DNA from: a bacterium
GTDB lineage: Bacteria; UBA10199; 2-02-FULL-44-16; JAAZCA01
Reading direction: 5' to 3'
DNA: 64,000 nt
Assembly: GCA_021810905.1 (NCBI GenBank)
Contig: JAJZQH010000003.1
Coordinates: 1,897 to 65,896 of the forward strand
Part shown: positions 9,653-64,000 of the stretch, one piece after another
Layout of the letters: each line of letters begins with the position of its first letter
Position numbering within the stretch: position 1 is the first letter of the stretch
Program-made: the position numbers and the translations under genes
The notes under the pieces: model-generated
Told to the model about the DNA's origin: nothing
Databases searched by the model: none
The model's input: the letters and a program-made list of their open reading frames with translations, nothing else

Positions 9653-10675
9653 TCAGCATAGTCTCGGAAGTTCAGCCCCCTGCAGCAACTGGACGATTTT
9701 TTCCTCCCCGCCTTCGCCGCACATCACGACGTGGCAATCATCACATTCTAACACTTTACCGATGACCGATGCGTGTTCCCCATATCGATGCCGACGGAGC
9801 GTTTCGACAATCCCCTTGCTCGCTCCGGAGGAAGCGAAGATGCAGACATTCCCTTCATTGGCGAGGTAGAGAGGATTTACGCCCAGCATGTCCGCGGCCA
9901 TAACGGTCTCATGCAGGATGGGAAGCCGCACCTGTTCGATGCGCACGCCGAACCCCCCTAGCTGCGAGATCTCGTTTAAGAGCGTTCCCAACCCGCCACG
10001 CGTGATATCGCGCATGCAATGAATACGATTCCCAAACTCTTTCAGCACACCCGCAATCATATCGTTGAGTGGAGCGCAGTCGCTTTGAATCCGCCGTTCG
10101 AACCCCAACCCTTCACGAATTGAAAGTATATGGATGCTGTGATTGCCGAGCTGTCCGGAGATGATGACATCGTCGCCTGGCCGAATGGACGATATCGAAA
10201 GATGTATATCATTAGGCTGAAAAATACCGATGCCGGATGTGTTGATAAAAATCTTGTCGACCTCGCCGCGTTTGACGACCTTCGTATCCCCGGCAACGAT
10301 ATACACTTCCGCCTCCAGTGCCGCGTCACGGATGGAATGCAGGATCTGTTCGAAATCCGAAAGCGGGAAGCCCTCCTCCAGGACGAAGGCGAGCGTCAGG
10401 TACAGCGGCTTGGCGCCGCTAACAGCCAGGTCGTTCACCGTGCCGCAAACGGCGAGCTTACCAATATTCCCGCCGTGAAAAAAAATCGGATCCAGAACAA
10501 AAGAATCGGTGGTGATAGCAATGCGATCGGCCTTCCACTCGAGTACGGTGCTGTCCTCCATCTGGCCTCGGTGGGTCTCACCGAGGCATCGCACGATGAC
10601 ATCTCTGATGAGATCCCCACTCAACTTGCCACCGGTTCCGTGATCGAGCACAATGCGATCTGACAGATAATTCAT
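9653..10675 (-). CDS. hypE: Hydrogenase maturation protein HypE (PurM-like carbamoyl dehydratase)
   Basis: N-terminal VLDHGTGGKLS. PurM-like fold. C-terminus ends ...GAELPRLC with the conserved terminal Cys that carries the thiocyanate in HypE. Track ORF begins at TTG 10693; ATG at 10675 preferred. Confidence 0.85.
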   Translation of the reverse strand: MNYLSDRIVLDHGTGGKLSGDLIRDVIVRCLGETHRGQMEDSTVLEWKADRIAITTDSFVLDPIFFHGGNIGKLAVCGTVNDLAVSGAKPLYLTLAFVLEEGFPLSDFEQILHSIRDAALEAEVYIVAGDTKVVKRGEVDKIFINTSGIGIFQPNDIHLSISSIRPGDDVIISGQLGNHSIHILSIREGLGFERRIQSDCAPLNDMIAGVLKEFGNRIHCMRDITRGGLGTLLNEISQLGGFGVRIEQVRLPILHETVMAADMLGVNPLYLANEGNVCIFASSGASKGIVETLRRHRYGEHASVIGKVLECDDCHVVMCGEGGEEKIVQLLQGAELPRLC

Positions 10676-11996: not shown

Positions 11997-12872
11997 ATGA
12001 GATACCTCTACGTGATTCTTCTGTTCGCTTTTCTGGTGGCTCCGCTCGCGTCCTGCGGTTCGAGTACGACAACGGTTTTTGATTTGAGAATGGCGCAGAC
12101 GCTGCAGCAATCGCTGGATCGCTCGGTGAGCGAGCTCAACATCCCGGGCGCGGTCATGGCGGTACGCGCGCCCGACGGGTCGATCTGGTCCGGCGCCAGC
12201 GGCTACGCAACGCTCCCCAACTCTGCTCAACCTTCCGGCGTGCGCATGACGACCGACATGCACCTGCGCATTGCCAGCATGATCAAGTCTTTCACTGCCA
12301 CGATGATCCTCCAGCTCGTGGACGAGGGGAAGCTCACGCTCGACGAGACGCTGGATCAGGTCATGGCGCAGTGGTTCGCGCCCGGCGTCATCGACTTCGC
12401 GATACCCTACAGCGACGCCATCACGATCAGGCACCTGCTCGAGATGCGCAGCGGCATGCCGAATTATTCCAATACGCCGGCCTTCTTAGCCCTGCTCGCG
12501 CAGCAGCCGCCGCAGCCGGTGGAAGCGAAGGAGCTCATCCGCATGAGCGTGCAGAGCGCCAATCCTGCTCCATATCCGCCGGACACTCGTATGGAATACT
12601 GCAACACCAACTACATCGTGCTCGGGATGATCGTCGAACAGGTCACGGGCAACCCCTACGCCGTTGAATGGCATCGTCGTCATCACCAACGGCGAACGGG
12701 GCGCACATCCAGAAGCCGGCCGTCACCCCGCACGCTCGATCTTCTGGAACGCGGTCCGGGACGCGGGCATTTATTTGCCATGAGAGCGCATGCGCCTGCT
12801 CAGCATTTTGAGCGAGCGCTTCAATTCGTCGCTGATCTCAACCGGATGAAGACCTGCTTCATTCCCGGATAG
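11997..12872 (+). CDS. Serine hydrolase, beta-lactamase/DD-peptidase-like lipoprotein (possible C-terminal frameshift)
   Basis: Track ORF 11814..12872 trimmed to ATG 11997 (MRYLYVILLFAFLVAPLASCGSS, lipobox LASC). SxxK motif SMIKSF. YxN motif YCNTNY. C-terminal 60 aa are R-rich and atypical. Confidence 0.6.
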   Translation: MRYLYVILLFAFLVAPLASCGSSTTTVFDLRMAQTLQQSLDRSVSELNIPGAVMAVRAPDGSIWSGASGYATLPNSAQPSGVRMTTDMHLRIASMIKSFTATMILQLVDEGKLTLDETLDQVMAQWFAPGVIDFAIPYSDAITIRHLLEMRSGMPNYSNTPAFLALLAQQPPQPVEAKELIRMSVQSANPAPYPPDTRMEYCNTNYIVLGMIVEQVTGNPYAVEWHRRHHQRRTGRTSRSRPSPRTLDLLERGPGRGHLFAMRAHAPAQHFERALQFVADLNRMKTCFIPG

Positions 12873-23010: not shown

Positions 23011-23031
23011 TTGCGGGAGTTCAATGAGATG

Positions 23032-23152
23032 GTTCCCCGCAGCTTGCTGCGGGGTTTCCGCCACCATCTCCCTTGAGGGGAGAGGGAAGGGTGAGGGTGA
23101 TCGTCGATGTTGCCGGTGATACCCCGCGGCTTGCCGCGGGGAGCATTCATTT
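23032..23152 (-). repeat. MITE-like ~130-bp repeat element, inverted copy
   Basis: Reverse complement of the element at 46753..46900, 52425..52554 and 55829..55958. Hairpins CCCCGCAGCTTGCTGCGGGG, CTCCCTTGAGGGGAGAG, CCCCGCGGCTTGCCGCGGGG. Confidence 0.75.
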
Positions 23153-40481: not shown

Positions 40482-41147
40482 TCAACTCGGCTTGCTGTGG
40501 CGCACATCCCTCCCCTTTGCCGTGAATATCGCGAGTTCCGCGATATTGGTGGAGTGATCCGCCATTCGTTCGAGATAGCGGACGATCGAAGTCGCCGGAA
40601 ACAGCCGGTTCAGATTTTCAGGCTCCTTTTCTGCGCGCTCCAGCAATTCCTTCACGTAATACTCGGTGAGATCGTCCACCACGTCGTCGTTATTGAGCAC
40701 TCCCTCGGCCTTTGCCGCGTTGGAGTTGACGAACGCGTCGATGCTGTCCTTGAGCATCATCTGCACATTGTTCGACATCTGAGTGAGATCGATAGGTGAG
40801 TCCCCGTGCTTCACGATATCTATCACGCGGCTCGCCGTGTTGACGGCTAGGTCCCCCACGCGCTCCAGATCCGTCACTATCTTTAGGCCGCGTGTGATAA
40901 AGCGCAGGTCCCACGCCGCGGGCTGGTAGCGCGCAAGCAGCTCTATGCACTGTTCGTCGATGGATACCTCCAGCGCGTTGACCGCATGATCGCTCTCGAT
41001 TATCTGCTGCGCGAGGGCCGTATCGCGCGAGGCCAGGGCCTTCATGCAATCCGCAACCATCGCCTCAACTTTGGATCCCATGAGCAGGATCTGCTGCTTG
41101 AGCGCCTCGATTGCCTCGTCAAAGTGACGATCGATGTGGTGTTCCAT
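40482..41147 (-). CDS. phoU: Phosphate-specific transport system accessory protein PhoU
   Basis: Two PhoU repeats (…RDTALAQQIIESDHAVNALEV… and …DVVDDLTEYYVKEL…). 221 aa. Immediately downstream of pstB. Confidence 0.9.
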   Translation of the reverse strand: MEHHIDRHFDEAIEALKQQILLMGSKVEAMVADCMKALASRDTALAQQIIESDHAVNALEVSIDEQCIELLARYQPAAWDLRFITRGLKIVTDLERVGDLAVNTASRVIDIVKHGDSPIDLTQMSNNVQMMLKDSIDAFVNSNAAKAEGVLNNDDVVDDLTEYYVKELLERAEKEPENLNRLFPATSIVRYLERMADHSTNIAELAIFTAKGRDVRHSKPS

Positions 41148-41155
41148 GATTCCTC

Positions 41156-41908
41156 CTATCCATAGCGTCCGGATATATAGTCTTCAGTGCGTTCGTCGCG
41201 CGGCGCGGTGAAGAGCTGCGTGGTCTTTCCGAATTCTATGAGTTCGCCGAGCAGCATAAAACCGCAGTCCTCGGAGACGCGCGCGGCCTGCTGCATGTTG
41301 TGCGTAACGATGACGATCGTGTATTCGCTCCTGAGGTCCTGCATCAGCTCTTCGATGTGCGCGGTGGCTATAGGGTCGAGCGCCGAGCACGGCTCGTCCA
41401 TGAGCAGGATCTCGGGCTTTGTGGCGAGCGCCCTCGCGATGCAGAGGCGCTGCTGCTGCTCGCCCGAGAGGGAGAGCGCGCCCGTCTTGAGCTTGTCCTT
41501 GAGATCCTCCCACAGCCCCACTCCCGTGAGGCATTTCTCGACTGTCTCCTCCACCTGCGACCTGTTGCCGATACCGTGGATTCTCATCCCGTAAGCGATG
41601 TTCTCGAAAATGTTCAGCGGAAACGGATTCGGGCGCTGGAAGACCATGCCTACGGTCCTGCGCAACTTGAGGATATCCTCATCGAGCAGCGGGCGACCCA
41701 GCACGCTCACGTCTCCCGTGATGCGCACGCCGGGGATGAGGTCGTTCATGCGGTTGAATACGCGAAGCAAAGTGGACTTGCCGCAACCCGAAGGTCCGAT
41801 GATCGAGGTGATGCGTTTGGGCGCAATGGAGACGGACACGGACTTCAGCGCATGGAAGTCGCCATAGAACAAGTTCAGGTCTGTGCAGGTTATGGAATCC
41901 ATCCTCAT
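41156..41908 (-). CDS. pstB: Phosphate ABC transporter ATP-binding protein PstB
   Basis: Walker [18 protein letters not shown] signature, PstB-typical length 250 aa. Overlaps upstream paralog by 4 nt. Confidence 0.9.
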
Positions 41909-42669
41909 CCAAACTTTCCAGTTACGTAATCCTCGGTGCGTTTGTCGCCCGGGGCGGTGAAGATCTTATTTGTATCGTCTACCTCTATCAGTTTTCCCAT
42001 GAGCAGAAAGGCCGTGCGGTCGCCCACTCGCGCTGCCTGCTTCGTGTTATTCGTGACGAGGATCAGCGTGTGCCTCGCCTTGAGTTCCTTCATCGCCTCT
42101 TCCACCTTTGCGGTGGAGATCGGGTCGAGGCCAGAGCACGGCTCGTCGAACATTATCACTTCGGGGCCCACCGCGAGCGTGCGCGCGATGCAGAGCCTCT
42201 GCTGCTGCCCGCCGGAGAGCTTCACCGCCGAACTGTCGAGCCTGTCCTTGACCTCGTCCCAGAGATAGGAGGCTACGAGCGTCTGCTCCACGAGATCGTC
42301 GGATGCCGATTTTCGAAGCCTGCGCACGAGTCTGGGTCCGAAGAGGATATTGTCGCGTATGCTCATGGGAAGCGGTATCGGCATCGCATAGACCATTCCG
42401 ATGCGCCGCCGCAACTCCTGGACGTCCCTGATTGCAGCCACGTCCTGCCCGCCCAGAAGAACGCTCCCTTCCACCGTGGCGTTGGTGACGCGCTCTATCA
42501 TACGGTTGATCGCCATGAGCAGCGTCGACTTGCCTGAGTTGGCCGGACCGATAATAGAGAGGATTTCGTTCTCCGCGATGTTGAGGGTCACCCCTTGCAA
42601 GGCAACTGCATCGCCGAATCTCACGCTGAGATCCAAAATTTCTATCTTGTTCTTCATGCGCGCCGTCAT
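41905..42669 (-). CDS. pstB: Second PstB-like phosphate ABC transporter ATPase (tandem paralog)
   Basis: Walker [18 protein letters not shown]. 254 aa. Sits between pstA and the other pstB. Confidence 0.85.
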
Positions 42670-43508
42670 GCCGCCCTCCGGCCGCGCATCAAGCGATGCA
42701 TCATCGTGTACGCCGTTATGTTGATGACGAGTATCGTGCAGATAAGGACGGCGGCCGTTGCGTACGCGTTGTCGTTCGATATCCCCTCACGCGCCAGGAT
42801 GTAAAAATGCACGGACATCGTGCGCGCGGAATCGAAGAGCGAGCGCGGCATCTGCACGGCGGAGCCCGCGGTGAATATGACGACTGCGGTCTCTTCTATC
42901 GAGCGGCCGATACCGAGGATTACGCCGGTGAGTACGCCTGGCAGCGCGTACGGAAGCACGGCGCGCGTCACTACCTGCCAGCGCGTAGCGCCGAGCGATG
43001 CGGCCACGTCGCGATAGTTGCGAGGCACCGCGCGCATTGCCTCTTCCGCCGTGCGGATGATGGTGGGCAGCACCATCGCGGCGAGCGAGAGGCCGCCGGA
43101 GATTATCGACCACCCGAAACCCAGCATAACCACGAATAGGATGAAGCCGAAGAGTCCGAATATTATCGATGGAACGCCCGCAAGGCAATTGATGCCGAAG
43201 CGGATCGTCTGCGTGACCTTGCCCTCCTGCGTGTATTCAGCGAGATAGATCGCTGAGGCGATGCCGAGCGGAGCCGCGATACCTATCGCCACGAACACCA
43301 TGAGGATCGTGCCCACGATGGCGGGCAGGATGCCGCCCGCGCGGCCCATATCCAGAATCGGCTCTGTGAGGAATGCCCACGTCACGTGCTTGAGGCCGCC
43401 TACCAGCACGAAGCCTATAACGAAGACGAGCGCCGCAACTGCCGACGCGCACGCGAGCGTGAGTGAAATCTTCGCGATCTTCTGCGTTATGGACGGCGGA
43501 ATGCGCAT
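42666..43508 (-). CDS. pstA: Phosphate ABC transporter permease PstA
   Basis: 280 aa polytopic permease with EAA-like loop. Position after pstC. Confidence 0.85.
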   Translation of the reverse strand: MRIPPSITQKIAKISLTLACASAVAALVFVIGFVLVGGLKHVTWAFLTEPILDMGRAGGILPAIVGTILMVFVAIGIAAPLGIASAIYLAEYTQEGKVTQTIRFGINCLAGVPSIIFGLFGFILFVVMLGFGWSIISGGLSLAAMVLPTIIRTAEEAMRAVPRNYRDVAASLGATRWQVVTRAVLPYALPGVLTGVILGIGRSIEETAVVIFTAGSAVQMPRSLFDSARTMSVHFYILAREGISNDNAYATAAVLICTILVINITAYTMMHRLMRGRRAA

Positions 43509-44390
43509 CTAGAATCGCCTCCTCGCCACGCGCAGCGCCACGGTGTTGAGCGCCATGATGAAGAAGAAGAGGACTATGCCCGTCGCGAAGAGCGCCTCGC
43601 GGTGATCGCCCACCGCGTAACCCATCTCGATGGCGATGTTGGCGGTGAGCGTTCGCACGGAATCGAGTATGGAATGCGGAATCTGCGTGGCGTTGCCGGA
43701 GATCATGATCACGGCCATGGTCTCGCCGACCGCGCGCCCCATGCCGAGGATCACGCCCGCGAGAATGCCGGAACGTGCTGCCGGAAGAATCACTCGCCAC
43801 GCGGTCTGCCACTCCGTCGCCCCGAGCGCGAGCGAGCCTTCCTTGTAGCTCCTGGGCACCGCATGGATCGCGTCGATCGATACGCCCACTATCGTGGGCA
43901 GGATCATGATGGCCAGCACGCAGGAAGCCGCGAGTATCGAAAGCCCCGGCCCACCCAGATGTACTCTAATGATAGGGGCCAGCCACATGACTCCGAGAAA
44001 TCCGTAAACCACCGAAGGGATGCCGGCGAGAAGCTCGATGGCGGGCTTGAGCACTGCGGCGAGCCTGGCCGGAGCAAACTCCGCGAGAAAGACCGCGCAT
44101 GCGACACCAAGCGGCACGCCGAGTATCAACGCCCCTGCGGTAACCCACAGCGATCCTATTATAAAAGGAAGTATGCCGAACTGCCCTTCGAGCGGAGACC
44201 ATATCCTGCCAAAGAGAAAATGGCCGAGCCCGCTCCTGATAATGATCGGCACGCCCTCCTTGAATATAAAGAGGGCAATGAGCGCCAGGATCGCAATCGA
44301 GGAGCACGCGGCGATAAAGAGCAGCTTTGAAATAAATCGATCCATAAGAAAGCTTGTGAGGCAAGCGACGGGATGGAGTATTCTCGGCAC
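43509..44390 (-). CDS. pstC: Phosphate ABC transporter permease PstC
   Basis: 293 aa polytopic permease. Immediately follows pstS and precedes pstA. Confidence 0.85.
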   Translation of the reverse strand: MPRILHPVACLTSFLMDRFISKLLFIAACSSIAILALIALFIFKEGVPIIIRSGLGHFLFGRIWSPLEGQFGILPFIIGSLWVTAGALILGVPLGVACAVFLAEFAPARLAAVLKPAIELLAGIPSVVYGFLGVMWLAPIIRVHLGGPGLSILAASCVLAIMILPTIVGVSIDAIHAVPRSYKEGSLALGATEWQTAWRVILPAARSGILAGVILGMGRAVGETMAVIMISGNATQIPHSILDSVRTLTANIAIEMGYAVGDHREALFATGIVLFFFIMALNTVALRVARRRF

Positions 44391-44510
44391 GCCTTCGTCG
44401 CCTCAGACGCCGGCTCCTCGTCTGCCCTCCGGACGCCGCGTTATTAGAGGCTTAGAAAGCGGCGTCCTCCGAGCGCCGAGAAAACTCCATCCCGTCGCTC
44501 GCCTCCAGAG

Positions 44511-45332
44511 TTATTTTGCTGCTATGAGTCCTTCCTTTTCGAGCGTCTTCTGCGCCTCGTCCGAGAGCATGTAATCGAGGAACGCCTTTGTCTGCGGAGA
44601 CGGTTCGCCCTTGGTGAGCAGGAAGATCGGCCGTGCGAGCGGGTACGATCCATTCTTCACGTTGGTGTCGTTTGCCGGAACTCCGTTATAGGTGAGCGCC
44701 TTGACCTTGTCGTTCACCAACCCGATGGAGACATAGCCGATCGCTGTCGGATCGGAGGCAACTGCCTGACGAACGGTGCCCGTTGAGTTTTGGAAGAGCG
44801 CTGAAGGCGCGAGCTTCGCGCCGACCAGCACCAGCTTGTCAAATGAGCGCCGCGTGCCGCTCCCCTCCTCGCGCGAGATCACGTGGATCGGCGAATCGCT
44901 GCCGCCCAGATCCTTCCAGTTTGCAACTTTGCCGGAGAATACGTCTCGCGCCTGATCGATGGTGAGCGCCTTGATGGAATTCACCGGGTTCACGACGATT
45001 GCTATGCCATCGCGGGCAACGACCGTTGATTTGAGCGCCGCTGCCTCAGGCGGGAGTTCGAGCAGATCCGCCATGCCGATCTGCGCCGCGCCCGAAAGCG
45101 CCGACTGTATGCCCACTGCGGAGCCGCCGCCTTGCACGTTGATCTGCACGTCCTTGTGCGTCTCGCCGTAGCGCTCCGCGAGCTTCTCGGCGAACGGCTG
45201 GAACGCGGTCGAACCGGCCAGGGTAATCGAATTTGCTGATGCGCGCGAGCATCCATTGCTTGCCAACGCGGCGAAGACGAAACCGCAACTCACAAATACA
45301 GCCAGGGCCTTCATTGATATCCTGTTCATGTG
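44511..45332 (-). CDS. pstS: Phosphate-binding periplasmic protein PstS
   Basis: Track ORF trimmed to MNRISMKALAVF. Signal peptide + PstS/PBP-like fold (GSTAFQPFAEKLAERYG, QGGGSAVGIQ). Confidence 0.85.
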   Translation of the reverse strand, partial: HMNRISMKALAVFVSCGFVFAALASNGCSRASANSITLAGSTAFQPFAEKLAERYGETHKDVQINVQGGGSAVGIQSALSGAAQIGMADLLELPPEAAALKSTVVARDGIAIVVNPVNSIKALTIDQARDVFSGKVANWKDLGGSDSPIHVISREEGSGTRRSFDKLVLVGAKLAPSALFQNSTGTVRQAVASDPTAIGYVSIGLVNDKVKALTYNGVPANDTNVKNGSYPLARPIFLLTKGEPSPQTKAFLDYMLSDEAQKTLEKEGLIAAK

Positions 45333-45394
45333 ATGCCTCCGTTTTGTTATCAAGCAATTGAGTAATGAACCAACATGAGTCACATGTTCGAAAT

Positions 45395-45412
45395 TTGTTA
45401 AAAAAATGTTAA
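45395..45412 (-). promoter_or_regulatory. Candidate Pho box (TTAACAT-TTTT-TTAACAA, 7+4+7 direct repeat) upstream of pstS
   Basis: On - strand the sequence TTAACATTTTTTTAACAA has the 11-bp-phased direct-repeat architecture of PhoB sites. Similar TAAC(A/G)AT repeats upstream of porin and phoA. Confidence 0.35.
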
Positions 45413-45442
45413 GGCGGCTTTATCGTCATAAAGCAAGGCATT

Positions 45443-46591
45443 TCATAGATATAACTGCAGCTGGACCCTCGCACGGTGGTCGATCTCTCCCTGAATGAAC
45501 CCCGGCGCTCCACCGGTCGTGACGATATTGGCTGGCCCGTTCACTCCGGCAGTTCCTCCAGCGCCTTTAACGAGTGCTCCGTTGATGAGGGCGCTGTAAT
45601 CCGCCTGAATTTTCAGATTGTGGCCGAAGAAGTAATAGTTGAAACATGCACCGGCTTCATAACCTTTAGTCACGCCTCCGGTGGGAACAACCCCCGCGAA
45701 TCTCCCCGCGACCTCAAAACGCTTTGGAATCAGAAAATAGCCGGCCTCGCCAAGGAAGCCGAACGTGTTTGTCTTTGCAGTGTGGTTCCTCAGGTAGTTG
45801 CCCTCACCATATAGGGAGAATCCCCGATACTGCAGGATGACATCGCTGGTCGTTGCTATTGTCGTGGCCTCGGGAACGGTTCCGCCGAGACGATTGTAGT
45901 TGCCGGCAATACCCACTGCCAGTTTAGGCGTCTCGGAAAAATCCAGATCGCTTATCGTGTAACCGGGCTCACCCAGGATGTTGAAGACAAGTCGGCCGCC
46001 CACAAGAAACATGAGATTGCGATTTGCAGCGTTAATATTGTTTCCGTCGTTAACCGCGAACACCGAATATTCCAGCCACCTGTCAACCGGCTTTCCGTGC
46101 ATCTCAATTCCCAGACCGCGGCCGAACGAGAAGGCCTCGTTGTTTACCGAGCGATCCACGAACTGCAGCTTCGTACTAGAAGTCAGCTCTTCCCTGTTAT
46201 AGGGCGCCTTAAACTGCCCGGCTTTCACTTGAATCCCATGACCGAAGTCATAATTGATGTATGCATCGCGCAGGTTCGGCCCGGTGTAAGCGACTCCAGG
46301 CGAAGCATTGGTCGTTCTGCCGCCCACCGCTTCAAACTGAACTTTGTAAGTAAGCTCTTTTGTGAAGGCATGCCCTGAAAAGATGAGCCGGCCGCGCCTG
46401 ATCTGAAACGAATTCGTCTTGCCGTGTCCTTCGATTGATACGAATTGATACTGCGGTTGCAGTTGGATTCCGAATTTCAATTCAAACTTTCCGTCGTCGG
46501 ATTCGAGCGTCAAGGGCTTATCGGCCCATGCCGCACGCCCTCCGCCGATGATGAACAGCACACCGATCAGCATTATGATAATCTTCCGCAT
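45443..46591 (-). CDS. Phosphate-selective porin O/P family outer-membrane protein
   Basis: Signal peptide. Beta-barrel pattern ending in aromatic residue. Porin O/P family similarity. Located in Pho cluster. Confidence 0.7.
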   Translation of the reverse strand: MRKIIIMLIGVLFIIGGGRAAWADKPLTLESDDGKFELKFGIQLQPQYQFVSIEGHGKTNSFQIRRGRLIFSGHAFTKELTYKVQFEAVGGRTTNASPGVAYTGPNLRDAYINYDFGHGIQVKAGQFKAPYNREELTSSTKLQFVDRSVNNEAFSFGRGLGIEMHGKPVDRWLEYSVFAVNDGNNINAANRNLMFLVGGRLVFNILGEPGYTISDLDFSETPKLAVGIAGNYNRLGGTVPEATTIATTSDVILQYRGFSLYGEGNYLRNHTAKTNTFGFLGEAGYFLIPKRFEVAGRFAGVVPTGGVTKGYEAGACFNYYFFGHNLKIQADYSALINGALVKGAGGTAGVNGPANIVTTGGAPGFIQGEIDHRARVQLQLYL

Positions 46592-46682
46592 CTAACGCTC
46601 CTTTCCTCACATTGAAAGTGCTCGTGATTGACGACGAGGATGACCTGCAGGACTGCGCCACGACCTGGACAATATAGATCAA

Positions 46683-46725
46683 ATCGTTACGAACGCCTTG
46701 TTCGGAAATCGTTAGAAAATTGTTA
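46683..46725 (-). promoter_or_regulatory. Candidate Pho boxes (TAACAAT-TTTC-TAACGAT ... TAACGAT) upstream of porin O/P gene
   Basis: Three TAAC(A/G)AT direct repeats on - strand. First two are 11-bp phased. Confidence 0.35.
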
Positions 46726-46752
46726 ATGCGTGAACTTGTAGCTCATCAAGAC

Positions 46753-46900
46753 AATGAATGCTCCCCGCGGCAAGCCGCGGGGTATCACCGGCAACATCTC
46801 CGATCACCCTCACCCCTGCCTACCGGCAGGCAGGCTTCCCTCTCCCCTCAAGGGAGAGTGGCGGAACCCCCGCAACAAGCTGCGGGGAATCATCTCATTG
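46753..46900 (+). repeat. MITE-like ~130-150-bp repeat element (three stem-loops, imperfect terminal inverted repeats)
   Basis: AATGAATGCTCCCCGCGGCAAGCCGCGGGG...CTCCCCTCAAGGGAGAG...CCCCGCAACAAGCTGCGGGGAATCATCTCATTGA. Copies at 52425..52554, 55829..55958 and inverted at 23032..23152. Confidence 0.75.
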
Positions 46901-46901
46901 A

Positions 46902-48059
46902 CTATCTTTCAAAGAGTGCGGTTGAAATGAGGCGATGTATATCGGTATTTTCGATCGTCCCTGACTTGAAGTGGTCCTTCATGCCAATCGCGAAGAGAGG
47001 GACGTCGACTGCGGTGTGCGCGGCCTCAAGTGAAGCGGGATCGTTCGGATCGAGGACGCGCGGATACGCAGAGTGCGGACCCGTCGCCCACGTGATGATC
47101 GGGTAAAGCCTTCCGTCTGCATCCTCGCCGGCATTTGCGAGGACGCTGCTGCCTGCCTTCGCATAGCCGTTTATCGCAAGTCCGCCGGTTTCGTGATCCG
47201 CCGTCACCAGTATCAGCGCCTTCTCCGGATCCGTCATCGAGGCACCGGCGCGGACAGCGGCGTCGAACTCGATGGTTTCTTCAAACGCGTCGTGCGCCCG
47301 GTTATCATGTTCTGCCTGGTCGATTCGACCGCCCTCGACCATGAGGAAAAATCCTTTTGGATTTTTTGAGAGCCGTTCGATGGCGATCTTCGTCATCTCG
47401 GGGAGCGAGGGCCCTGAATATCCGGACTGCTTTCTCTCGAGCACAAATGGGATATGGCTGTCCGCGAAGCAGCCGACAACCTTTTGATCGATCGGCGCCA
47501 TCTTTATATCCCGCAGATTGTATGCCAGCGTGAAGCCCTTCCTGGTCACTTCATCCTTTGAGAAATATTTACAGCCACCTCCCATTGTCACATCGATCTC
47601 CGAGTCCAGCAGCTGGCCCGCGATTTTTTGCTCCTCGTTGCGATCAGCAACGTGTGCATAAAAACCCGCCGGCGTTGCATGGGTGATGCGAGTAGTGGTG
47701 ACGAGACCCACGGAGAGCCCCATTTTTTTTGCCTCTTCGGCTATCGTTACGAGCCTGTGATTCAGATCGCACCTGGGTCCCAGACCTAGACAACCGTTAT
47801 CGGCCTTGCTTCCGGTAGCCATAGCTGTAATTGCAGCCGCTGAGTCGGTCACCATCTTGTTGTGAGATCCTGTGCGCACGTGAGCGATGAGCGGGAGCTC
47901 ATCAATGAAGAGACCGCCGCGCCGCTCATTCTTATAAAGCCGAGTTGCAGTGATATCCGCGACGCCCATCCCGTCTCCGATGAAGAGGATGACATCTCTC
48001 GCATGAGCGGTTTGCGAGATGAGGCATGCTGCCAGCGCTATTGCAATTTTGAATTTCAT
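46902..48059 (-). CDS. phoA: Alkaline phosphatase
   Basis: Motifs DGMGV, DSAAAITAMATG (active-site Ser), EGGRIDQAEHDN, TADHETGG. Signal peptide. Confidence 0.85.
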   Translation of the reverse strand: MKFKIAIALAACLISQTAHARDVILFIGDGMGVADITATRLYKNERRGGLFIDELPLIAHVRTGSHNKMVTDSAAAITAMATGSKADNGCLGLGPRCDLNHRLVTIAEEAKKMGLSVGLVTTTRITHATPAGFYAHVADRNEEQKIAGQLLDSEIDVTMGGGCKYFSKDEVTRKGFTLAYNLRDIKMAPIDQKVVGCFADSHIPFVLERKQSGYSGPSLPEMTKIAIERLSKNPKGFFLMVEGGRIDQAEHDNRAHDAFEETIEFDAAVRAGASMTDPEKALILVTADHETGGLAINGYAKAGSSVLANAGEDADGRLYPIITWATGPHSAYPRVLDPNDPASLEAAHTAVDVPLFAIGMKDHFKSGTIENTDIHRLISTALFER

Positions 48060-48099
48060 GGTTGTCTCCTTATCCAGTTATTATGAAATAAATATTTTG

Positions 48100-48125
48100 A
48101 ACGTGTAAAAAATTTGTAAGCGTTA
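48100..48125 (-). promoter_or_regulatory. Candidate Pho box (TTAACGC TTACAAA-TTTT-TTACACG) upstream of phoA
   Basis: 11-bp phased TTAC(A)NN repeats on - strand within the 100-bp phoA leader. Confidence 0.3.
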
Positions 48126-48161
48126 ACTCATTGTCGCTGCCCGATCTGGCTCAATGCCGAT

Positions 48162-50009
48162 TCATTTGGCCGCGCTCAACCCGCGCTCCATATCGGGCAG
48201 CATTTTCTTCATCCTGTTCGCCATGAAAAAGGCCTTAAAGAACATCCCCCAGCTGACCAATGAATTCGCAAACAGATTCCACTGCCTCACGATTCTCTCC
48301 GCAACGTTCAAGCCCTCCGTCTCCATCTCTTCGGCGGCCCTGGTATTCTTGGCTATGGCATGCCCGATCTTGATGCTCTCCCACAACTTGCCCATGAATC
48401 CCCTGGAGTCCTTTGACTCAGCCCTTTTTTTACGGGTCGATCTGATCGCCTGCCAAATTTGTCCCATGTTGCGGCCTGCCAGGAATCTCCTTATCGCAGG
48501 GCCTTCTTTCACCATATACTGCAGGAAGAGCAATCCGCCGTACGTTGAAGTGAACAACAGCGCGTGGGGTTCTGTGGCTGGATAGACTGAAACTGCAGTG
48601 CCGATGAGAGATGCGGCTGCGCCTATGCCCAGCGCGTTGACTATATGTTCGGTCGAAAGCTGTCTTGTCCTCTCCGCCACGGTCATTCTGTGCGTTTTTC
48701 CATTCTTCACTTCTACGGTCCCGTTCGGATCGAGACCGCGCAGCCCCCAGTGCTCTTTTAAGTTTCTGATCGTCTTGCCGGCAATCACTCCAAAGCCAAT
48801 GCTCGGAGGGAGCAATGCGAGGAGAAGACCGCCTATGACCAGCGTCTTTGGGACAACAAACGCGTAGTTGGCCCACCGATAAAGCGCCTCTGCGTTCGTG
48901 GATAAGGCGGCAGCGTTGTGTGCCGTCGGCTGAAGTTTTTCCATGGCATCGCTTACATAGGCAGAGTTCTCACGCAGAAAGGAGAAGCGTTCGGGCGCAA
49001 ACAGTGCGGCCCCGAGTATGGCGCTCGAGGCGATGGCCACGGCAAACTTCGGCACACGGGCAATCGCGTTGCCGAGCGAAAAGAGCGCGGCGTTGACGTC
49101 AGGGGTGTTGATCTGTCTGTCCTCTCCCTTTTCCACGGCTGACACGTATTTCTGTTGCTCTGCCTCGAGCATGGATAACCCGCTCTTCGCCTTTGCCCAC
49201 CATCCCAGGATCGACAGCGCAAATGCCCCATTTACCGCAATCGTTCCCGCAATATAACCCGCTTCCCACATGGTTGTGCCCCTGCCGAACAATTGCGCTG
49301 CGCCTATAGCCAGAAGCGTCGCACCTGAACAGACCTTGTCGGCCGTAAACGCCACGTTTCCGAGCAGGTCATAATAGTTTCGGAGATGGAGCTTCGTCCG
49401 CTCATCTTCGCTCAACCTTGTATCTCTGGCGAATGCAGCGGTCGCTGCAATATTGCCTCCGATAGCAAGCAGGTATCGTGCAAGCTTGCCTCCCATATAA
49501 ACATTCGAGTATCCGGCTGATTCGATGTCGATCTGAACCCTCTCAGAAGGGCTGAGGGCATGCCCCATGTGATCGCCGACGAGAAAACGCATCGGGATCG
49601 ACATGACATTTCCGGTATCCTGAGTATGGAGCGGTTCATCCGTGTAGGTGCCGGCCGCAACAAGCGCGCCGCTTATTGCCTCAGCCCTTGCATAATCGCC
49701 GACTGCCGCGGCGGCGCTGGGGACTCCCTGCGTCGACAATCTCCACAATGCCTTTCCGTCGATTCCGCCGTCATGCTGAGATCCTTCCGCAACTGTGGAT
49801 ACAGGGCCAGAGACACCCGACGGAGCAAAGGTTGATGACTGATTTGAAATCGCAGCAGCATCTACTGAGGAAGCGGCCGCAGGGGAAAGGCGGTCATCAA
49901 CGATATCGTCCGCAGTCAGCTCTTCCGTTTCATCAAAAAGAGGCTCCGCAGAAATTGCCGAGCCAAACTGCTCTGCTGAAGCCGTAAGGGAAGCCTGCAC
50001 GCTTACCAT
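48162..50009 (-). CDS. Large hypothetical protein (615 aa) with internal hydrophobic segments, embedded in Pho cluster
   Basis: Long ORF with plausible codon usage. No recognisable domain. Divergent from phoB. Confidence 0.4.
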   Translation of the reverse strand: MVSVQASLTASAEQFGSAISAEPLFDETEELTADDIVDDRLSPAAASSVDAAAISNQSSTFAPSGVSGPVSTVAEGSQHDGGIDGKALWRLSTQGVPSAAAAVGDYARAEAISGALVAAGTYTDEPLHTQDTGNVMSIPMRFLVGDHMGHALSPSERVQIDIESAGYSNVYMGGKLARYLLAIGGNIAATAAFARDTRLSEDERTKLHLRNYYDLLGNVAFTADKVCSGATLLAIGAAQLFGRGTTMWEAGYIAGTIAVNGAFALSILGWWAKAKSGLSMLEAEQQKYVSAVEKGEDRQINTPDVNAALFSLGNAIARVPKFAVAIASSAILGAALFAPERFSFLRENSAYVSDAMEKLQPTAHNAAALSTNAEALYRWANYAFVVPKTLVIGGLLLALLPPSIGFGVIAGKTIRNLKEHWGLRGLDPNGTVEVKNGKTHRMTVAERTRQLSTEHIVNALGIGAAASLIGTAVSVYPATEPHALLFTSTYGGLLFLQYMVKEGPAIRRFLAGRNMGQIWQAIRSTRKKRAESKDSRGFMGKLWESIKIGHAIAKNTRAAEEMETEGLNVAERIVRQWNLFANSLVSWGMFFKAFFMANRMKKMLPDMERGLSAAK

Positions 50010-50153
50010 CGCTGCGTCCTTTCGAAAAACAAGTTGCGCTCGTGACCATGCTTTCTGTAATAATGCTCATGACCTCTCTCACCTGGCGCATTAAGCGCAG
50101 ACGTGCTTTAGGAAGTGATTCGCAATCTGTTAATTATTGGTTAGGAGCGCCGC

Positions 50154-50843
50154 ATGGCTAAACTGAAAGTGCTCGTGGTCGACGACGAGGAAGACCTGCA
50201 GGAACTGCTGCGCTACAATCTCGAAAAAGAGGGCTATTCCGTATCGTGCGTCTCATCGGGTGAAGAGGCTCTCGCCTCTGTCAGAAAAAGCGTGCCGGAC
50301 ATCATCGTTCTGGACCTCATGCTTCCGGGCATGGACGGCTTCGACGTCTGCAGGGCGCTGAAGAAAGAGCAGAAGAGTGCGCGCATTCCTATAGTGATGC
50401 TCACTGCAAAAGGTGAGGACACGGACATCGTAGCCGGGCTCGAACTGGGCGCTGACGACTACGTGACCAAGCCCTTCAGTCCCAGGGTTCTGATAGCGCG
50501 GCTGAGAATGGTGCTGCGCCGCAAGCGCAAGGACGATGCGCCGTCTGCTGCAGAAACGATTGAGATACGAAATCTGACGATAGACCCGCAGCGGCACAGG
50601 GTCTCCATCAAGGGCAGGTCCGTCGAGCTCACCGCGACTGAGTTCGCCCTGCTGCATCACCTGGCCGGCAAACCCGGCTGGGTCTTCACGCGCGGCCAGC
50701 TCATCGATTCGATCAAGGGGAGCGACTACGCCGTGACCGAACGCTCGATAGACGTACAGATCGCCGGCCTCAGAAAAAAACTCGGCGCGGCCGGAGAAAA
50801 TATCGAGACGGTGCACGGCGTCGGCTACAGGTTCAAGGAGTGA
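50154..50843 (+). CDS. phoB: OmpR/PhoB-family response regulator
   Basis: Receiver domain (VVDDEEDL...DLMLPGMDG...K) plus winged-helix trans_reg_C (ELTATEFALLHHLA...VHGVGYRF). Adjacent to phoR-like kinase and pst genes. Confidence 0.85.
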   Translation: MAKLKVLVVDDEEDLQELLRYNLEKEGYSVSCVSSGEEALASVRKSVPDIIVLDLMLPGMDGFDVCRALKKEQKSARIPIVMLTAKGEDTDIVAGLELGADDYVTKPFSPRVLIARLRMVLRRKRKDDAPSAAETIEIRNLTIDPQRHRVSIKGRSVELTATEFALLHHLAGKPGWVFTRGQLIDSIKGSDYAVTERSIDVQIAGLRKKLGAAGENIETVHGVGYRFKE

Positions 50844-50846
50844 GAG

Positions 50847-52274
50847 ATGTCGAGAAAGCGGCTCTTGTGGCAGCTCTATCCTTCGTATCTCGCGATCACG
50901 CTGCTGGCGCTCGTGGCGATCGCGATATACTCGTCCAATGCGTTCAAGCAGCTCTTCTACGAACAGACTCTCTCGGAGCTCACGCATTCGGCCAGGCTCG
51001 TCTCGCAGATCATACTTGGATCCAACGCATGGAGCGAGAAGACCATAGACGCAATATGCAAACAGGCGGCCCAGAACTCATCCAAGAGGATAACCGTAAT
51101 CCTTCCCGACGGCGTCGTCATCGGGGATTCAGAGGAAGATCCGGGTTTGATGGAAAATCACGCTGAGCGGCCAGAGGTGAGCGAGGCGCTCGAGGGCTCC
51201 GTGGGAATAGCCACGCGCCACAGCCGTACGCTGGGCAAGGACATGACCTACGCCGCGATACCGCTCTACAAAAACGACAAGGTGGCGGCAGTCGTGCGCA
51301 CGTCGATGCCAACGCGTTCGCTGTCGGAAGTTATGAGCTCTCTGTATGCGGGCATCGCACTCGAAGCCGTGCTCCTCGCCATCCTCGTTGCGGCGATGCT
51401 CCTCGTCATCTCCAGAAAAATAATCAAGCCGCTGGAGAAGATCCGGATCGGGGCACGCAAATTCCTTGAGGGAGATCTCTCATACCGTTTGAGGGTTCAC
51501 GGTTCCGATGAGGTAAAGGCGCTGGCGACGACGATGAACCAGATGGCGGCCGAGCTGCAGGAACGGATCGAGCGCCTCAAGCAGATGGAGAACACGCGCC
51601 GCGAATTCGTAGCCAACGTCTCTCACGAACTCAAGACGCCGATCACCTCCATCAAGGGGTTTGCGGAGACGCTGCGCGACGGTGCGCTGGACGACCCTTC
51701 GCGCGCGAAGCAGTTCCTGGAGATCATAGCTTCGCATGCCGAGAGGATATCCAATATCATCGAGGACCTTCTGCACCTCTCCCGGATCGAGCAGGTGCAT
51801 GAGGTGCAGCAGATACCGCTGGAGCGCAGCGCGATCAGGGAGATGCTCGAGTCCGCGATCCTCATGTGCGAGACCAAGGCTTCGGAGAAAAAAATTACGC
51901 TGGAGCTATCCTGCGACGCCGGGCTCACGGCCCTCATAAATCCTGCGCTGCTCGAGCAGGCGGTCGTGAACCTCATCGACAACGCGATCAAGTACAGCGC
52001 CGAAGGCGGAAAGGTTTTCATCGAAGCGAAGGACGACGCCTCGGGCATGCGCATCTCCGTGCGCGATTCGGGAGTCGGAATACCGCAGGAACACCTGTCG
52101 CGGATTTTCGAGCGATTCTATCGTGTGGACAAGGGTCGGAGCCGCAAGCTGGGCGGCACCGGCCTGGGGCTCGCGATCGTGAAGCACATCGTGGCTGTGC
52201 ACAACGGACACGTCTCCGTCGAAAGCACCGTGGGTCAAGGGAGCAAATTTACGATCCGCCTGCCGGCCGAATAA
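50847..52274 (+). CDS. phoR: Sensor histidine kinase (PhoR-like)
   Basis: Two TM helices, HAMP-like, HisKA SHELKTPITSIKGF, HATPase_c (GLGLAIVKHIV). Start 4 nt after phoB stop. Confidence 0.85.
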   Translation: MSRKRLLWQLYPSYLAITLLALVAIAIYSSNAFKQLFYEQTLSELTHSARLVSQIILGSNAWSEKTIDAICKQAAQNSSKRITVILPDGVVIGDSEEDPGLMENHAERPEVSEALEGSVGIATRHSRTLGKDMTYAAIPLYKNDKVAAVVRTSMPTRSLSEVMSSLYAGIALEAVLLAILVAAMLLVISRKIIKPLEKIRIGARKFLEGDLSYRLRVHGSDEVKALATTMNQMAAELQERIERLKQMENTRREFVANVSHELKTPITSIKGFAETLRDGALDDPSRAKQFLEIIASHAERISNIIEDLLHLSRIEQVHEVQQIPLERSAIREMLESAILMCETKASEKKITLELSCDAGLTALINPALLEQAVVNLIDNAIKYSAEGGKVFIEAKDDASGMRISVRDSGVGIPQEHLSRIFERFYRVDKGRSRKLGGTGLGLAIVKHIVAVHNGHVSVESTVGQGSKFTIRLPAE

Positions 52275-52424: not shown

Positions 52425-52554
52425 AATGAATGCTCCCCGCGGCAAGCTGCGGGGTATCATCGGCAACATCTCCGATCACCCTCACCCTTCCCTCTCCCCT
52501 CAAGGGAGAGGGTGGTGGAAACCCCGCAGCAAGCTGCGGGGAATTATCTCATTG
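52425..52554 (+). repeat. MITE-like repeat element copy
   Basis: Near-identical to 46753..46900 and 55829..55958. Confidence 0.75.
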
Positions 52555-52618
52555 ATGCATCAACCGTTGATGCATTGAGGCATTTAACCACCAAGCTGCA
52601 GATAGATGGAGGTGTACT

Positions 52619-55828: not shown

Positions 55829-55958
55829 AATGAATGCTCCCCGCGGCAAGCCGCGGGGTATCACCGGCAACATCGACGATCACCCTCACCCTTCCCTCTC
55901 CCCTCAAGGGAGAGGGTGGCGGAAACCCCGCAGCAAGCTGCGGGGAATCATCTCATTG
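55829..55958 (+). repeat. MITE-like repeat element copy
   Basis: Near-identical to 52425..52554. Lies just 3' of cusA. Confidence 0.75.
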
Positions 55959-56002
55959 ATGGGCCATCTTGACACACGCGGCAGGATGTTTGCTCGAGAA
56001 GA

Positions 56003-63574: not shown

Positions 63575-64000
63575 ATGGTCAGCCGGATTATTTATATCTG
63601 TGCATTCATTTCATTGGTGGCGCTTACTCTCCAAGCTAGTGAGAAGAATTTTTCAAGTAATTCATTTTTATCTGGAGGCTGGACGCAGCTAGACGGTGCC
63701 AGGGTTGGATTTGATGACATCGTTTCGTTAAAAGACATGCAATTCATTCATTCTGACCGAGAGAGTGTCTCATTGGCGAGTACAAATGCAGGCGCGAAAA
63801 TGAAAAAAGTTGAGATAAAAAATAATTTTGACGGAATATTGACATTCTTCAATTTTTTTATACCTGATGATAGCAAAACGGTGAGAATCTTATTTAGCGA
63901 TACTTGGCCCCTCGCAGATATTTATGTGGATGACCACGGCCCTTTTGGAGGTACTAGTAAAAGCGGTATTGGTTTTATTCACGAGCAGTTTGAGTTAGGA
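63575..64000 (+). CDS. Secreted hypothetical protein, 5' partial view (runs off window end)
   Basis: ATG 63575 3 nt after previous stop. Signal peptide MVSRIIYICAFISLVALTLQA. Open to end of window. Not in ORF track because no stop inside window. Confidence 0.4.
   Translation, partial: MVSRIIYICAFISLVALTLQASEKNFSSNSFLSGGWTQLDGARVGFDDIVSLKDMQFIHSDRESVSLASTNAGAKMKKVEIKNNFDGILTFFNFFIPDDSKTVRILFSDTWPLADIYVDDHGPFGGTSKSGIGFIHEQFELG

Follow-up and report, generated by a model that had tools for sequence, protein, structure and literature searches.

The question raised by this locus is which regulator reads the short direct repeats that precede several phosphate genes of an uncultivated bacterium. 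The stretch analysed (contig JAJZQH010000003.1 of assembly GCA_021810905.1, positions 1,897 to 65,896; 64,000 nucleotides, hereafter the window) carries a pst-phoA-phoBR cluster. A preliminary description had noted repeats of a 7+4+7 architecture upstream of pstS, a porin O/P gene and phoA, and had proposed them as candidate lineage-specific Pho boxes. A Pho box is generally defined as tandem 11-bp units arranged head to tail (PMC4415409). Our analysis indicates, with considerable confidence though on sequence grounds, that the repeats before pstS and the porin gene, together with a further site before ORF615 (an open reading frame of 615 amino acids), are Pho boxes, i.e., predicted operators for the phosphorylated PhoB-like regulator encoded at 50154. 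The phoA site is less clear and is weighed separately.

All four sites lie on the minus strand, the coding strand of the genes behind them, and each consists of at least two direct repeats at an 11-bp period (7 conserved and 4 variable positions). The pstS operator (45373..45412) has four phased units, TTAACAT-TTTT-TTAACAA-ATTT-CGAACAT-GTGA-CTCATGT. Three phased units each make up the porin operator (46698..46726; TTAACAA-TTTT-CTAACGA-TTTC-CGAACAA, the third unit at 46704..46698) and the ORF615 operator (50116..50144; CTAACCA-ATAA-TTAACAG-ATTG-CGAATCA), while the phoA candidate box (48103..48120) has two, CTTACAA-ATTT-TTTACAC. The ORF615 box is located in the ORF615/phoB intergenic region and is oriented toward ORF615, with 9 nt between its end and the phoB ATG. 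A pattern scan of the 64 kb places every match in the leader of pstS, the porin O/P gene, the alkaline phosphatase gene or ORF615. Across 24 units from the window and its relatives, the unit consensus is (C/T)(C/T)TAAC(A/G)AWWT, and the central TAAC is present in 23 of them.

The strings first reported at pstS, the porin gene and phoA are all found on the minus strand at the places given, and they cover only part of each array. What escaped notice were the CGAACAT and CTCATGT units at pstS and the whole site at 50116..50144. The "third TAACGAT" of the porin leader does exist as GTAACGA (46690..46684, minus strand) but is not in 11-bp phase, being 25 bp from the second unit and 14 bp after unit 3; the true third in-phase unit is CGAACAA. 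A similar CGTAAC at +14 also precedes phoB in one related locus (L169). Likewise, TTAACGC is present beside the phoA box (48126..48120, minus strand) but out of phase. An inverted repeat over pstS units 3 and 4, AACATG...CATGTT, was considered as a second operator and dropped, since neither L164 nor L167 has it.

Do these repeats exceed what chance would produce in AT-rich intergenic DNA? The leaders are indeed AT-rich (GC content 36% at pstS and 37% at phoA, about 57% in the window), and the spacers are largely T-runs, so that A/T tracts or UP-like elements with no specific binder could be imagined. The pattern YTAAC-N6-YTAAC has 3 matches in the 64 kb where 0.03 are expected, all three with CGAA in the third unit; the relaxed YTWAC-N6-YTWAC has 4 where 0.18 are expected, each within a leader of the pho cluster and in coding-strand orientation. 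Because both patterns were defined post hoc, after the sites had been seen, an independent matrix test was made. An 11-bp unit matrix was derived from ten units of pstS promoters outside the window and scanned as a dimer on both strands. The porin (27.0, the top of the window), pstS (25.0) and ORF615 (19.9) sites came first among 128,000 positions, and the five best positions were these three and shifted registers of them. Across 30 simulations of a 64-kb sequence, the best score had a mean of 14.1 and a maximum of 21.8. Furthermore, none of 3000 dinucleotide-preserving shuffles of the respective leader reached the observed score for pstS, the porin gene or ORF615, whereas 170 of 3000 (about 6%) did so for phoA. 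Weaker matrix matches at 9736 and 34093 lie inside long open reading frames, and a third, at 63876, falls within the window's AT-rich end; all were taken as noise. No comparable match occurs in the other intergenic regions of the window, the AT-rich 62-64 kb end included. AT-richness alone, the objection anticipated in the preliminary description, is thus excluded as the source of the repeats at pstS, the porin gene and ORF615. The earlier view that three Pho leaders share the repeats is borne out well beyond chance for pstS and the porin gene, and is marginal for phoA taken alone.

Related genomes speak to the same question. Among representative genomes, the closest PstS relatives are L001, L002 and L003 (70%, 57% and 54% identical), and protein searches supplied eight more loci (L163 to L170; PstS 66 to 72% or PhoB 64 to 78% identical). 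For PstS and PhoB, the nearest relatives carry the labels "bacterium," Verrucomicrobiota, Lentisphaerales, Deltaproteobacteria, Polyangia or Marinimicrobia. A metagenome scan with PstS returned no relative above 44% identity and was of no use for footprinting. Within 148 kb of related loci, exact YTAAC-N6-YTAAC occurs six times, always on the coding strand, and lies 79 to 116 nt before either pstS or a porin-pstSCAB-phoU operon. In the relatives' promoters, TAAC words pair exactly 11 nt apart in six of six cases, and none is on the opposite strand. A box precedes pstS or porin-pstS in L001, L002, L163, L164, L167, L168, L169 and L170, and phoBR adjoins or is near pstS in most relatives, often in a shared intergenic region.

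The pstS array of the window is collinear with those of L163, L164, L167, L168 and L170 (four units, 8 nt and a TAnnnW hexamer). For example, L167 has TTAACGT-TTTT-TTAACAT-CCTT-CGAACAA-GGTG-CTCATGT-CGCGGATA-TAGGCA, and L168 has CTAACAA-ATTT-CTAACAT-CAGG-CTAATCA-ATTC-CTAATCC-AACTCGGT-TATTAA. The cores are kept and the spacers vary. In L169, the cores of the array CTAATTC-GTCG-CTAACGC-GGCG-CTCATAT are kept between GC-rich spacers, and base composition is therefore ruled out as the cause. Taking the shuffles, the strict 11-nt pairing and the strand bias together, an origin of the repeats by chance in AT-rich DNA appears scarcely conceivable. L169 also has a further phased box, TTCATCC-AATC-CTAACAT-CCGG-CTTAACG (12527-12559, plus strand), between phoR and an ORF of 280 amino acids; this ORF is followed by two secretin genes and is a possible extra member of the regulon.

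A different account of the likeness among the pstS, porin and ORF615 boxes would be recent copying of a promoter segment within the cluster, with no selection involved. The pstS and porin boxes are identical at 23 of 29 positions, and the cluster does bear a rearrangement scar, a 5′ fragment of phoB in the porin leader (see below). However, the likeness ends at the box edges, where the flanks are unrelated; a repeat search finds no extended repeat over the boxes; and the same unit pattern recurs in other genomes with unrelated flanks. Copying is therefore a very improbable explanation.

The position of the boxes relative to the predicted promoter elements would also suit operators. A consensus promoter scan found no canonical -35/-10 pair at pstS, the porin gene or ORF615, which fits activator-dependent promoters. 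At pstS, the putative -10 element TACTCA (TAnnnW; 45359..45364, minus strand) lies 8 nt downstream of unit 4. The relatives have a TAnnnW hexamer 8 nt after the last unit as well, namely TAGGCA (L164, L167), TAGCTT (L163), TATTAA (L168) and TAATTT (L170). The candidate -10 of the porin gene, TATATT (46671-46676, minus strand), is located 3′ of the off-phase GTAACGA. TAnnnW follows the last unit by 8 nt in promoters of the pstS type and by 10 nt in the leaders of the porin gene and ORF615, and this box-to-hexamer distance is conserved in six promoters. What the analysis shows is the sequence pattern with its statistics, its confinement to pho leaders and its recurrence in other genomes; the transcription starts, as well as PhoB binding and activation, we infer.

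The arrangement suggests how such promoters might work. Two strong upstream units (YTAAC) would be followed by one or two weaker in-phase units (CGAAC, CTCAT), which would occupy the place of the -35 hexamer and end 8 to 10 nt before the TAnnnW -10 element. When phosphate is limiting, PhoB would be phosphorylated by PhoR; as dimers it would then load onto the strong units, reach over to the weak promoter-proximal ones and bring in RNA polymerase. Besides the pstSCAB-B-phoU operon, the predicted targets are the gene for porin O/P and ORF615; phoA is a possible further one. The proposal of a PhoB site, as first made, is thus well supported by the restriction of the boxes to the cluster, by their recurrence in relatives (first unit at -79 to -116 from the start codon) and by PhoB orthologues of 64 to 78% identity; its extension to phoA is uncertain.

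Several observations weigh against reading the sites as PhoB operators. The genome scan covers the 64-kb window and about 10 to 20 kb per relative. Among the relatives, L003 has no box, L165 has one good unit and L166 has a degenerate array. The phoA box has a matrix score of 11.8, which ranks 10th in the window and is not significant, and its TTTACA doubles as the -35 of a sigma-70 match, TTTACA-18-CATAAT (48109..48080; 10 of 12 matches). The window phoB gains 261.6 bits against TIGR02154, below the NCBIfam equivalog cut-off of 296.2. Cyanobacterial SphR reportedly keeps the contact residues of E. coli PhoB yet binds TTAAC boxes (PMC1906773). Finally, TTAAC-like half-sites are used by other OmpR-family regulators, for instance the ArcA-like TTTAACA motif of Riemerella PhoP (PMC9603813).

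For phoA, these points allow a simple alternative, in which TTTACA is an ordinary sigma-70 -35 element, CTTACA is coincidental and PhoB exerts no direct control. The shuffles that equal the low matrix score, the good sigma-70 match and a leader with no in-phase CGAAC or CTCAT as third or fourth unit are all in keeping with it. On the other hand, the site is one of only four YTWAC-N6-YTWAC matches in the 64 kb, and it is a single mismatch from TT[ATC]AC[AT]-N5-TT[ATC]AC[AT], a pattern taken up below with the Bacillota boxes. Its strand is the coding one for a canonical Pho gene, a TATTTA hexamer (TAnnnA) follows 8 nt downstream, as at pstS, and overlap with the -35 position is usual for Pho boxes. 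We put the odds that the phoA site is a Pho box, judged from these features, at about even; the ordinary -35 element is a real possibility, held at somewhat less than an even chance.

Which protein would bind the other sites? The closest solved relative of the window PhoB's DNA-binding domain is E. coli PhoB (1GXP). Compared with the latter, the recognition helix and wing carry T194S, R200A, R201G and R219H, with V197 kept. The PhoB orthologues of L001 and L163 to L165 share the helix RS(I/V)DVQI(A/V)GLRKKL and the wing TVHGVGY, and Gly201 is common among the 125 closest PhoB homologues. In the E. coli PhoB complex, Arg201 forms a hydrogen bond with a guanine in the half-site, and Arg219 touches bases that lie between half-sites (PMC3973317). 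The R201G and R219H changes agree with a specificity other than CTGTCAT, and a PhoB clade with Gly201 and His219 may read YTAAC by contacts unlike those of E. coli PhoB. Since SphR reportedly keeps the contact residues and nonetheless binds TTAAC, this argument from R201G is only suggestive.

TTAAC-like half-sites serve other OmpR-family regulators too, and the binder is therefore identified from gene context. The sites could be true operators for a different OmpR-family regulator, or for a second factor, and not for the adjacent PhoB. Direct repeats of the TTAAC/TGTTAA type serve several proteins of this family, e.g., Riemerella PhoP (PMC9603813), and the window phoB, besides falling below the equivalog cut-off, also scores well against the RegX3, MtrA and YycF models. 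Against such a regulator speak the box before pstS or porin-pstS in most relatives with phoBR adjoining or near, the DNA-binding domain, which taken alone is nearest to E. coli PhoB, and the genes themselves, as pstS, porin O/P and alkaline phosphatase are canonical PhoB targets. We therefore consider a different binder unlikely and retain the adjacent PhoB as the predicted one.

How do these sites compare with known Pho boxes? The core site of B. subtilis PhoP, as described by Liu and Hulett in 1998, reportedly consists of four TT(A/T/C)ACA-like hexamers at a periodicity of about 11 bp. The window sites share with the PhoP box its coding-strand direct repeats, 11-bp phase, four units and a probable overlap with the -35 region. 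TT[ATC]AC[AT]-N5-TT[ATC]AC[AT] fits the window pstS site without a mismatch, and the porin and ORF615 sites depart from the TT[ATC]ACA repeat by one CTAAC unit. Of 77 other loci, most of them from Bacillota (L004-L080), 41 have the TT[ATC]AC[AT]-N5-TT[ATC]AC[AT] pattern upstream of pstS, and it occurs only 19 times elsewhere in those loci (0.93 Mb, both strands); in Paenibacillus, it often takes the form TTAACATTGCGTTTACA upstream of pstS. In contrast, the YTAAC dimer precedes pstS in only 3 of the 77. Unlike the Bacillota PhoP box, the units of the window and its relatives usually have C first (CTAAC), and their central base is nearly always A. Unlike B. subtilis, the window host is of the Gram-negative type with an outer-membrane porin. 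The helix and wing residues of B. subtilis PhoP, SH and R, differ as well.

The cyanobacterial SphR box has at least three tandem 8-bp CTTAACCT repeats with 3-bp linkers upstream of pstS and phoA (PMC1906773). It has in common with the window sites the 11-bp period, at least three tandem units, the TTAAC core and a place upstream of pstS and phoA. In the window pstS site, unit 1, CTTAACAT, agrees with CTTAACCT at 7 of 8 positions, and at pstS, the porin gene and ORF615 three in-phase units are found, as in an SphR-type box, the third units (CGAAC) being weaker. The two differ at positions 7-8, which are C-T in SphR and A/G-A in the window, and in the promoter-proximal units, which are CGAAC or CTCAT in the window. 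In SphR proteins, the contact residues of E. coli PhoB are reportedly retained; the window PhoB has Gly201 and His219 instead.

The E. coli Pho box is CTGTCAT-N4-CTGTCAT and is located 10 bp upstream of the -10 element (PMC4415409; PMC1906773). It resembles the window sites in its 7+4 units, in their tandem head-to-tail order, in replacing the -35, as the window boxes would, at 8 to 10 nt from the -10, in the presence of several boxes at pstS and in its target genes. It differs in the half-site sequence and in the base-contacting residues R201 and R219. Moreover, the window box adjoining phoB faces away from that gene and touches its ribosome-binding site, in contrast to an activating site placed upstream. 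Allowing up to 3 mismatches, CTGTCAT-type dimers occur 4 times in the window (4.6 expected) and none is in the pho cluster; the half-site is indeed unlike the enteric one, as first noted. The motif of Riemerella anatipestifer PhoP from DNA affinity purification sequencing, in which TTTAACA is most conserved, has the same TTAACA core and likewise belongs to an OmpR-family "PhoP" of a Gram-negative bacterium, but its regulon reportedly concerns virulence and oxidative stress, not classical pst/phoA genes (PMC9603813).

The term "lineage-specific," applied to the half-site at the outset, is not upheld, since the core matches both the Bacillota PhoP box TT(A/T/C)ACA and the SphR repeat CTTAACCT. 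Being shared with Bacillota and cyanobacterial boxes, it is therefore not a new kind of site. The window sites very probably belong to the known TTAAC-type Pho box, and only the CTAAC preference and the nearly invariant TAAC look typical of the clade. In the library of papers searched, none links "Pho box" to the Planctomycetes-Verrucomicrobia-Chlamydiae (PVC) phyla.

The box before ORF615 adds a protein with no Pfam or NCBIfam match to the predicted targets. ORF615 (48162-50009, minus strand) encodes a hydrophobic product of 615 amino acids, probably a multi-pass membrane protein. A word-index search found no homologue, and an exhaustive search of 1.84 billion proteins gave only 12 other representatives of clusters formed at 50% identity. 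Two homologue loci were inspected (L171 and L172), and they show no phoBR nearby and no significant box. A weak homologue in L163 (24% identical) is near phoBR, with upstream repeats 12 to 13 nt apart. ORF615 as a general member of the Pho regulon was rejected on account of the missing phoBR and box in L171 and L172 and the misphased repeats in L163; it is predicted to be a new Pho target in this genome only.

The same box raises the question of feedback on phoB. It abuts the GGAG ribosome-binding site of phoB, and with its end 9 nt from the ATG, phoB's own promoter must overlap the box. The same spacing of 9 nt separates phoB from a divergent pstS box in L168. Such a layout hints at negative autoregulation of phoB through the ORF615 box. 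Autoregulation of phoB in E. coli is positive.

A second feature of the cluster touches phoB. The porin leader contains, at 46613-46652 (plus strand), a 40-nt copy of phoB codons 4-17 (50164-50203, plus strand) that is identical at 37 of 40 positions; it reads TTG-KVLVIDDEDDLQ, followed by a 4-nt deletion/frameshift. None of the 8 related loci checked has the copy, and a second sample yields a contig (L082) in which it is identical. With a porin start downstream of TATATT, it would be transcribed antisense to the phoB initiation region, and the predicted antisense/phoB duplex has an energy of -97.6 kcal/mol vs -41.9 ± 4.9 kcal/mol for shuffles. Most simply, the copy is a rearrangement scar of a truncated response-regulator gene, and a feedback role as a trans-antisense to phoB mRNA is possible. 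A dual negative feedback on phoBR, in which repression of phoB through the box would be joined by the Pho-induced porin leader (40 nt, 93% complementary) acting as a trans-antisense, seems to us a doubtful prospect.

The genes discussed form one contiguous cluster of pstS, pstC, pstA, two pstB, phoU, porin O/P, alkaline phosphatase, phoB and phoR, in which phoBR (plus strand) is divergent from the others (all on the minus strand). The operon pstS-C-A-B-B-phoU spans 40482-45329, with pstS first. It comprises pstS (44511-45329; TIGR02136, 233.9 bits, above cut-off), whose ATG at 45329 has GGAGG just 5′ of it, pstC (43509-44390), pstA (42666-43508) and phoU (40482-41147), all three above their NCBIfam cut-offs, and two tandem pstB genes (41156-42669; 313.5 bits against an NCBIfam cut-off of 343.2). 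The double pstB is common to the window and L163 to L167, and L170 has a single one. Further upstream lie the gene of the phosphate-selective porin O/P family (45443-46591; PF07396, Porin_O_P) and the alkaline phosphatase gene phoA (46902-48059; PF00245, with a partial match to the NCBIfam alkaline phosphatase model). On the plus strand, the phoB-like response regulator gene (50154-50843), with TIGR02154 PhoB as its best NCBIfam match, is followed by a phoR/PnpS-like histidine kinase gene (50847-52274; 330 bits to PnpS and 274 bits to PhoR, both below cut-offs).

Directly 3′ of phoU is a gene for a thaumatin-domain protein (PF00314; 39403-40374, minus strand), a domain unusual in bacteria. A GC-rich intergenic repeat of about 130 to 150 nt, resembling repetitive extragenic palindromic or miniature inverted-repeat transposable elements and folding on itself at about -90 kcal/mol, has four copies of 83 to 97% identity in the 64 kb, at 46753-46901, 52425-52555 (plus strand), 55829-55959 (plus strand) and 23021-23151 (minus strand). 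The first separates the phoA stop codon from the porin box, and another lies just after phoR. Rfam and tRNA scans across the window gave no match.

The concept of Pho regulation is unchanged by these results, which amount to a sound and ordinary regulatory annotation. For an uncultivated lineage without experimental genetics, they provide an operator model that can be put to use: two to four 11-bp units of (C/T)(C/T)TAAC(A/G)AWWT, with a TAnnnW -10 element after 8 to 10 nt. The model lets the phosphate-starvation regulon be predicted in related genomes and metagenomes, and it nominates ORF615, from a very rare protein family, as a new target. It also ties a PhoB subfamily with the helix RS(I/V)DVQI(A/V)GLR to a TTAAC-type box, and it supports the view that Pho boxes of this type are widespread outside Proteobacteria.

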